From Escherichia coli (GTDB lineage: Bacteria; Pseudomonadota; Gammaproteobacteria; Enterobacterales; Enterobacteriaceae): a stretch of 64,000 bases of DNA. The stretch lies in the NCBI RefSeq assembly GCF_003334355.1, contig NZ_QOWP01000016.1; one strand, written 5' to 3'. Below the pieces are notes generated by a model. It was given only the letters and a program-made list of their open reading frames with translations. It did no database searches and was not told the origin of the DNA. A program made the position numbers and the translations under genes. This document shows positions 6,991 to 7,020 of this stretch, piece after piece. Position 1 is the first letter of the stretch. Each line of letters opens with the position of its first letter.

Positions 6991-7020
6991 CGGCTTCTCA
7001 GGCGAGAAGCCGTTCTTATT
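6991..7020 (+). terminator. Intercistronic hairpin between ygcU and ygcS, possible partial terminator
   Basis: CGGCTTCTC (6991-6999) pairs with GAGAAGCCG (7004-7012), 4-nt loop, then TTCTTATT. Confidence 0.35.

Follow-up and report, generated by a model that had tools for sequence, protein, structure and literature searches.

A conserved terminator-like hairpin between ygcU and ygcS, a candidate leaky terminator inside a cryptic Escherichia coli operon

What is the role of the stem-loop that separates the ygcU and ygcS genes of Escherichia coli, and does it determine how strongly the downstream transporter gene is expressed? We addressed this question in a 64-kb stretch of E. coli DNA, the whole of which is called the window below. 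The ygcU stop codon and the ygcS ATG are separated here by a 93-nt gap. A 301-nt query across the site matched 5,094 of 5,426 complete E. coli genomes; in the annotation of the matches (RefSeq E. coli and K-12 MG1655) ygcU is an FAD-binding oxidoreductase and ygcS an MFS transporter. The intergenic region is 100% identical to that of K-12 MG1655. K-12 coordinates are obtained by subtracting the window coordinate from 2904913, and the + strand of the window corresponds to the K-12 minus strand. The genes yqcE-ygcE are divergent and lie upstream of ygcW, while ygcP-ygcO-ygcN are convergent and lie downstream of the cluster. We found no paper naming both ygcS and ygcU, and none on this junction or on the regulation of ygcS or ygcU. 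The features of the locus are as follows:

4640–5425, + strand: ygcW, with ATG at 4640
5495–6949, + strand: ygcU open reading frame (K-12 2897964–2899418), stop codon TAA at 6947–6949
6956–6990, + strand: hairpin 1, a 13-bp stem (6956–6968/6975–6987) including G-U pairs, with a 6-nt loop, followed by UUU(U)
6991–7012, + strand: hairpin 2, a perfect 9-bp stem CGGCTTCTC/GAGAAGCCG with the loop AGGC
7013–7021, + strand: U-rich tail of hairpin 2, UUCUUAUUA, with six U among nine nucleotides, interrupted at positions 3, 6 and 9
7032–7038, + strand: ygcS Shine-Dalgarno sequence GAAGGGG
7043–8380, + strand: ygcS, with ATG at 7043–7045
8358–9137, + strand: ygcR
9134–9994, + strand: ygcQ
10142–10717, − strand: ygcP, a full-length G3P_antiterm domain (PF04309)

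The first-pass annotation had described a GC-rich stem of 9 bp with a 4-nt loop and a U-rich tail between the ygcU stop and the ygcS start. This structure, named hairpin 2 here, is indeed present in the sequence, and the interval given for it, 6991–7020, is exact. It lies on the sense strand and starts 42 nt past the ygcU stop. Positions 6991–6999 pair with 7004–7012 through six G-C and three A-U pairs around the loop at 7000–7003, and the stem is followed by TTCTTATTAC (TTCTTATTA). The structure thus has the anatomy of an intrinsic-terminator stem-loop (G+C-rich, stem of ~5–14 bp, loop of 3–8 nt) in sense orientation 3' of a coding region, and its site is included in a consensus terminator scan.

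Hairpin 2 is more stable than expected by chance (−15.6 kcal/mol, z = −4.7; one of 200 shuffles was as good), and so is the complete 93-nt spacer (−41.7 kcal/mol, z = −3.9; none of 200 shuffles was as good). If perfect hairpins are required to have a stem of 9 bp or more, five or more G-C pairs and, past the stem, six or more T in nine nucleotides, the two strands of the window together hold four, compared with 0.0 on average in 30 dinucleotide shuffles of it. The pattern GGCTTCYCNNNNGRGAAGCC of hairpin 2 has a single occurrence in the window, and each orthologous locus likewise has one. A search of Rfam with positions 6000–8000 at E ≤ 10 gave one irrelevant sub-threshold match inside ygcS and no family for hairpin 2. 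We also considered a REP/BIME or another repeat and rejected it: REP elements share a consensus and number hundreds of copies per genome, whereas the 93-nt intergenic region, compared with 5,093 E. coli genomes at E ≤ 10, has a median of one matching place in each.

Hairpin 1, overlooked in the first-pass annotation, lies directly upstream of hairpin 2, with three bases between the two stems (−22.4 kcal/mol, z = −4.1). It was found in E. coli, E. albertii, E. whittamii and Escherichia sp., where C-G/U-G changes preserve its pairing, and it is missing from all other genera compared. The E. coli junction is therefore composed of two tandem terminator-like hairpins. The ygcW-ygcU spacer, which is the only other spacer inside the operon, is unstructured (z −1.0).

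It should be mentioned that the junction is altered in some E. coli strains. In CFSAN018748 (locus L069) an IS200C element is inserted just past the hairpin 2 tail, at about window position 7020, and parts the hairpin from ygcS. In 2015C-4136CT1 (locus L070) a deletion joins the end of ygcU to ygcS, and ygcU is annotated as a pseudogene.

The region downstream of the hairpins contains the signals for ygcS translation. The 30 nt after the hairpin 2 tail hold the ygcS Shine-Dalgarno sequence, and the surrounding block TTTACCGGACAATGAAGGGGTAGAAATG is conserved in Escherichia, Citrobacter, Klebsiella, Raoultella, Superficieibacter and Yokenella. A longer ygcS starting from the in-frame ATG at 6971 (open reading frame 6971–8380), which would enclose the hairpins, was rejected: the RefSeq and K-12 start is at 7043, preceded by a good Shine-Dalgarno sequence, and the extension has no counterpart outside Escherichia, where the intergenic region is 52–62 nt long. 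A mini-ORF, ATGAAGGGGTAA (7029–7040), was rejected as well for want of conservation: C. amalonaticus and C. braakii have a deletion of it, in locus L009 it lacks a stop, and the Pluralibacter group does not contain it.

A separate promoter for ygcS was likewise rejected. No sigma-70-like site was found in or near the intergenic region, nor anywhere on the + strand from 5620 to 10435, and the 30 nt between the hairpin 2 tail and the ygcS ATG contain no promoter-like sequence. Since, in addition, ygcS, ygcR and ygcQ overlap one another, these genes appear to need read-through from upstream.

To estimate how widely the hairpin is distributed, we scanned a genome collection with YgcU and obtained 67 loci; ygcS follows ygcU in about 45 Enterobacterales loci. 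The corresponding junction of 34 orthologous loci, representing about 12 enterobacterial genera, carries hairpin 2. Its carriers include Escherichia, Citrobacter, Klebsiella, Raoultella, Superficieibacter, Enterobacter, Pluralibacter, Mixta, Yokenella, Entomohabitans and other Enterobacteriaceae, and its consensus, (A)CGGCTTCCC-N4-GGGAAGCCG(T), precedes a T-rich stretch. In an alignment of 35 sequences, 88% of the cells form standard pairs, versus 41–57% when the 3' partner is slid. Nine of the 10 pairs show compensatory changes on both sides, and none of 500 shuffles matched the observed pairing or covariation. In the Cedecea group, the source of most of the unpaired cells, the junction carries another perfect hairpin, GTCGGCTC-TCAG-GAGCCGAC, with its register shifted, and Buttiauxella, too, has a different perfect hairpin of its own at this place.

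The 18 stem positions have a mean identity of 78% to E. coli (range 0.72–0.94 in 24 non-Escherichia loci), whereas fourfold-degenerate sites of ygcU, which are near saturation, reach 41–52%, and the bases between the ygcU stop and the stem are unalignable across genera. This difference indicates that hairpin 2 is under purifying selection; it is real, non-random and selectively maintained.

The position of hairpin 2 is also constrained. Its distance to the ygcS ATG is 19–32 nt in all orthologues, and in genera without insertions it starts 6–9 nt past the ygcU stop. Four independent insertions, one of which is the Escherichia hairpin 1, are all located upstream of it. Palindromic inserts of ~120–195 nt separate the ygcU stop from hairpin 2 in Klebsiella spallanzanii (L006), Enterobacter sp. 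(L010) and Raoultella terrigena (L055), and C. koseri (L007) carries a palindromic insert of 51 nt upstream of the hairpin; these inserts may be ERIC/IRU-like. The fixed spacing to ygcS, the restriction of insertions to the upstream side and the extra conservation of the stem hint at a function connected with ygcS more than with the end of ygcU.

In Limnobaculum, Rahnella, Budvicia and Serratia an unrelated G+C-rich hairpin is still present 3' of the ygcU stop. Erwinia, Pantoea, Ewingella and some Serratia contain ygcW-ygcU without a downstream ygcS, and such ygcU-terminal lineages also have an unrelated G+C-rich hairpin past the ygcU stop; the 3' end of ygcU would therefore be an old transcript boundary. 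Among the matching records were a contig labelled as a Planctomycetota MAG (L003), 100% identical to E. coli ygcU and the spacer, and a contig labelled as Chryseobacterium sp. (L026) with a typical Enterobacteriaceae ygc cluster. Both are probably contaminations or mislabelled public records.

Is this hairpin also a good terminator? Intrinsic terminators typically have a U-tract of ~7–9 nt directly 3' of the stem. We ranked the candidates with the discriminant of d'Aubenton-Carafa 1990, combined with ViennaRNA energies. The resulting scores are approximate, and their ranking alone is meaningful: hairpin 2 of E. coli scored 2.0 (borderline), hairpin 1 scored 7.7, and the terminator in the ygcW leader (see below) scored 56. 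Scores of the orthologous hairpins 2 ranged from −44 to +44. Clear terminators were found in C. sedlakii (T7, score 44), a Pluralibacter MAG (T6, score 34) and locus L014 (T8, score 28). Stems of a textbook type, 10–11 bp long, are followed by T7 in L015 and T8 in L014, and L016 has T6. In weak orthologues the T-run is displaced by 2–4 nt, as in C. amalonaticus and C. braakii (CAATTTT, score −44); the CAATTTT tails belong to loci L011 and L013. The 9 nt past the maximal stem contain on average 4.6 T, with five or more T in 17 of 32 distinct sequences. Thus, the hairpin is constant across genera while the U-tract is variable. Since the T-tract does not consistently adjoin the stem and the scores span this whole range, selection seems to preserve the hairpin and not necessarily termination. 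At the same time these loci provide a natural series for the evolution of terminator strength, with T8, T7, interrupted and displaced tails on nearly the same stem.

We then compared the junction with published RNA 3' ends. The Term-seq list of Adams et al. (2021) for LB at OD 0.4 (PMC7815308) contains no 3' end at K-12 2897871–2897963, its consecutive rows passing from K-12 2892741 to 2900311, and among the searched entries of the SMRT-Cappable-seq and TERMITe supplements none falls at the ygcU-ygcS junction or concerns these genes. The same Term-seq data contain a strong 3' end at K-12 2900311(−), i.e., at window position 4602, 38 nt upstream of ygcW, with 40,640 reads, a Rho score of 0.5 and an intrinsic-terminator score of 15.8 (PMC7815308). 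This end suggests that most transcripts of the ygcW operon stop in the leader in LB. The missing ends at the junction are thus a weak negative, neither confirming nor refuting termination there, because the operon is shut at the leader in this medium. In the convergent genes, Adams et al. (2021) list two signals within ygcN (K-12 2892741/2893051 (+), window ~12172/11862 (−)): a 3' end 84 nt into the gene, for which the Rho score is significant, and a region of Rho termination scored at 6.9; from these, ygcNOP also appears to be prematurely terminated in LB.

The leader itself has a conserved organization, and a second copy of it is found on the opposite strand, before the divergent yqcE:

4543–4617, + strand: terminator/antiterminator of the ygcW leader; the terminator is a 19-bp hairpin, GAGAAAGGTAACTTCCC-TCTCGC-GGGGGAAGTTACCTTTCTT, followed by T9
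4409 to 4346, − strand: leader switch of yqcE, a second copy, upstream of the yqcE ATG at 4321

In about 50 Enterobacterales loci the leader hairpin lies 33–41 nt ahead of ygcW, and it also occurs in two Firmicutes loci. An alternative helix can be formed by AGTTACC (4551–4557) and GGTAACT (4573–4579), the latter being the base of the terminator 5' arm; this 7-bp antiterminator stem encloses a GAGA-rich loop of 15 nt, AGAGAUAAUGAGAAA. In 49 distinct sequences the antiterminator helix is 99.7% paired, with compensatory changes in three of its seven pairs, and a three-way covariation (C/G/C to U/A/U) includes the 3' arm of the terminator. No Rfam family matched this leader. The yqcE leader has the arrangement ATTACT-AGAGACCTGAGAAA-AGTAAT...CTTACTTTTCTC followed by T8 (−22.3 kcal/mol, z −3.9), and a Term-seq 3' end is known in it at K-12 2900556(+), window position 4357, with 1,557 reads and an intrinsic score of 11.4 (PMC7815308).

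The loop motif GAGAYNANGAGARA was revealed in 53 of 63 ygcW upstream regions (at most two mismatches) and, at no more than one mismatch, also before yqcE in many loci and genera. In the window it occurs only at 4559–4572, apart from one unrelated hit with one mismatch. At ygcU-ygcS junctions there was one weak hit among 46 loci, and none at the junction of the window. It should be mentioned that a perfect CRP consensus, TGTGATTACGATCACA, is present at 4500–4515 in the region that separates yqcE from ygcW, and a plausible start site of ygcW follows ~41 nt downstream of it; ygcW/yqcE are among the top CRP targets predicted by PhyloScan (PMC1794230).

A likely partner of these leaders is encoded in the cluster. 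YgcP is a full-length member of the Pfam family G3P_antiterm (E 1.6e-62) and the sole regulator-like gene product of the cluster. In all loci its gene shows synteny with the cluster, and the linkage to ygcW-ygcU(-ygcE) extends even to Firmicutes. YgcP is also the most conserved protein of the cluster, with 96–97% identity between E. coli and Citrobacter/Klebsiella, compared with 88% for YgcS, 72% for YgcR and 60% for YgcQ. In Bacillus subtilis, GlpP with glycerol-3-phosphate opens the promoter-proximal terminators of glpD, glpFK and glpTQ (PMC9604022). The ygcW leader and that of B. subtilis glpD have the same layout: in both, the terminator is promoter-proximal and overlaps an antiterminator. 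The ygc cluster also includes a GlpP-family gene. No significant sequence homology of the two leaders was found (p ~0.05–0.09), and the resemblance is architectural only. By this analogy YgcP, as a GlpP-family protein, probably targets the ygcW leader, and we infer, with good motivation, YgcP-dependent antitermination at both the ygcW and the yqcE leaders. This conserved leader switch is a more interesting by-product of the analysis than hairpin 2 itself. It also bears on the first-pass proposal that the junction hairpin may set transporter expression, a wording that is too strong: the dominant control is the ygcW leader terminator/antiterminator, and the junction holds two tandem hairpins, not one.

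What, then, would the junction contribute? In the reading that we favour, and to which we give about an even chance, hairpin 2 is a modest, probably leaky intercistronic Rho-independent terminator in the ygcW-ygcU-ygcS-ygcR-ygcQ unit, joined by hairpin 1 in Escherichia. RNA polymerase that has passed the ygcW leader terminator would transcribe ygcW and ygcU, and at the two hairpin/U-tract signals a fraction of the complexes would be released. The 3' stem-loop of the released ygcW-ygcU mRNA would shield it against 3' exonucleases, and the rest of the polymerases would read through into ygcS-ygcR-ygcQ, which have no promoter in the 30-nt spacer. We infer that termination at the junction would be partial and would affect stoichiometry, giving more message for the dehydrogenases (YgcW, YgcU) than for the transporter (YgcS) and the electron-transfer flavoprotein (YgcR, YgcQ).

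A terminator or stability function is favoured because of the hairpin anatomy, its conservation with compensatory changes and the lack of a promoter in the 30 nt before ygcS. The suggestion of a partial terminator or processing site made in the first-pass annotation therefore survives in part: these same features speak for it, but not the U-tract, which has interruptions in E. coli and shows poor conservation between genera, nor the Term-seq data, which list no 3' end there in LB.

Internal Rho-independent terminators and attenuators are well known in E. coli operons, e.g., the rplL-rpoB attenuator and the T1 terminator before dnaG in rpsU-dnaG-rpoD. Like them, hairpin 2 combines a hairpin with a U-rich tract between cistrons of one unit, the downstream genes have no promoter of their own, and a fixed step-down of the distal genes would be expected. 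In contrast to these two elements, whose efficiencies have been measured, hairpin 2 has an interrupted U-tract and is doubled in Escherichia. It can be regarded as a candidate unannotated example of a well-known kind of element that would tune relative expression inside a cryptic catabolic operon of E. coli. To express the ygc cluster (ygcW/U/S/R/Q, with ygcN/O/P, yqcE and ygcE nearby), transcription would have to pass a strong leader terminator and two weaker intercistronic signals.

As the main alternative, hairpin 2 could serve RNA stability or processing, or could be recognised as a hairpin in connection with ygcS; the variability of the U-tract, the unusual conservation of the stem sequence and the unchanging distance to the ygcS start speak for this. 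As a stability or processing element, hairpin 2 would cause little or no termination; it would block 3'-to-5' exonucleases after endonucleolytic cleavage and so stabilise ygcW-ygcU, and/or form a stem-loop near the 5' end of a processed ygcS-ygcR-ygcQ mRNA and thereby stabilise or position this mRNA. We consider this somewhat unlikely; it is compatible with a leaky terminator and does not exclude one. Conservation of the hairpin but not of the U-tract agrees with it, as does the constant distance to the ygcS ATG with all four insertions upstream. Stabilising intercistronic hairpins are, moreover, an established mechanism, known from the malE-malF REP/BIME and the Rhodobacter capsulatus puf operon. 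Like these, hairpin 2 is a stable stem-loop after an upstream cistron that could protect against 3' exonucleases and lead to differential expression; unlike the malE-malF REP, it is single-copy in the 5,093 E. coli genomes and lacks the REP consensus. However, a pure stabiliser would not need the T-rich tails found in about half of the orthologues (at least five T in nine, some T7–T8), and no RNase site is identifiable from the sequence. A related reading, which we regard as unlikely, sees in hairpin 2 a dedicated, sequence-recognised cis-element of ygcS-ygcR-ygcQ, e.g., a protein-bound RNA hairpin or a 5' stabiliser made by processing. It is suggested by stem conservation far above the neutral rate, by the fixed ygcS spacing and by the dispensability of the U-tract in several genera. 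In a narrower form the palindrome GGCTTCCC-N4-GGGAAGCC would be bound by a protein, as an RNA hairpin or as a DNA operator, and would control ygcS-ygcR-ygcQ. The high stem identity at near-saturated neutral divergence and the fixed spacing fit this form, and the apex of the ygcW leader terminator shares the core CTTCCC...GGGAAG in the same genera. Nevertheless, we find it improbable: the hairpins found at this position in Cedecea, Buttiauxella, Limnobaculum, Rahnella and Serratia are unrelated in sequence, the cluster has no gene for a DNA-binding regulator, and perfect stems are expected to change slowly anyway, since paired substitutions are needed. Homology of the junction and the leader (TTACCGGACAATGAAGGGGTAA versus TTACCAGAGATAATGAGAAAGGTAA, containing this common core) was rejected, the alignment score of 14 being not significant against 13.3 ± 2.2 in shuffles.

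Two further explanations would give the junction a stricter role than a leaky terminator. Hairpin 2 could terminate transcription efficiently, so that a ygcW-ygcU operon would truly end here, with ygcS-ygcR-ygcQ forming a separate unit with its own promoter. The tandem arrangement of two terminator-like hairpins in E. coli, the strong T7–T8 forms of some Citrobacter and MAG loci and the existence of ygcW-ygcU without ygcS in Erwinia, Pantoea, Ewingella and some Serratia are consistent with this. Against it, only 30 nt, including the Shine-Dalgarno sequence, are left between the tail and the ygcS ATG, promoter-like hexamers are absent from the + strand between 5620 and 10435, a promoter within ygcU would still face both hairpins, and the E. 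coli U-tracts are weak; a true operon end is accordingly hard to credit here. Even less credible, and very unlikely in our opinion, is a conditional terminator of the YgcP (GlpP-family) antitermination circuit that is read through only with an inducer. The syntenic ygcP gene and the conserved terminator/antiterminator switch in the operon leader would be in line with such a circuit, but the likeness to the glpD 5' UTR extends to the ygcW and yqcE leaders only. Hairpin 2 is intercistronic and has neither an antiterminator nor the GAGA-rich leader motif GAGAYNANGAGARA, no upstream segment is able to pair with its 5' arm, and in most genera the 6–9 nt between the ygcU stop and the hairpin leave no room for an antiterminator. 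We therefore rejected it as a GlpP-type target, and hairpin 2 apparently stands outside the YgcP leader circuit.

Further structured elements were noted elsewhere in the window. The convergent gap between ygcQ and ygcP (9995–10141) contains REP-like palindromes, GCCTGATAAGACGCG...CGCATCAGGC, and its fold has −54.4 kcal/mol (z −2.8). When the entire window was searched against Rfam at the gathering threshold, the sok antitoxin RNA was the only family recovered (RF01794, 103.7 bits, at 17458–17614 on the + strand), implying a hok/sok-type locus.
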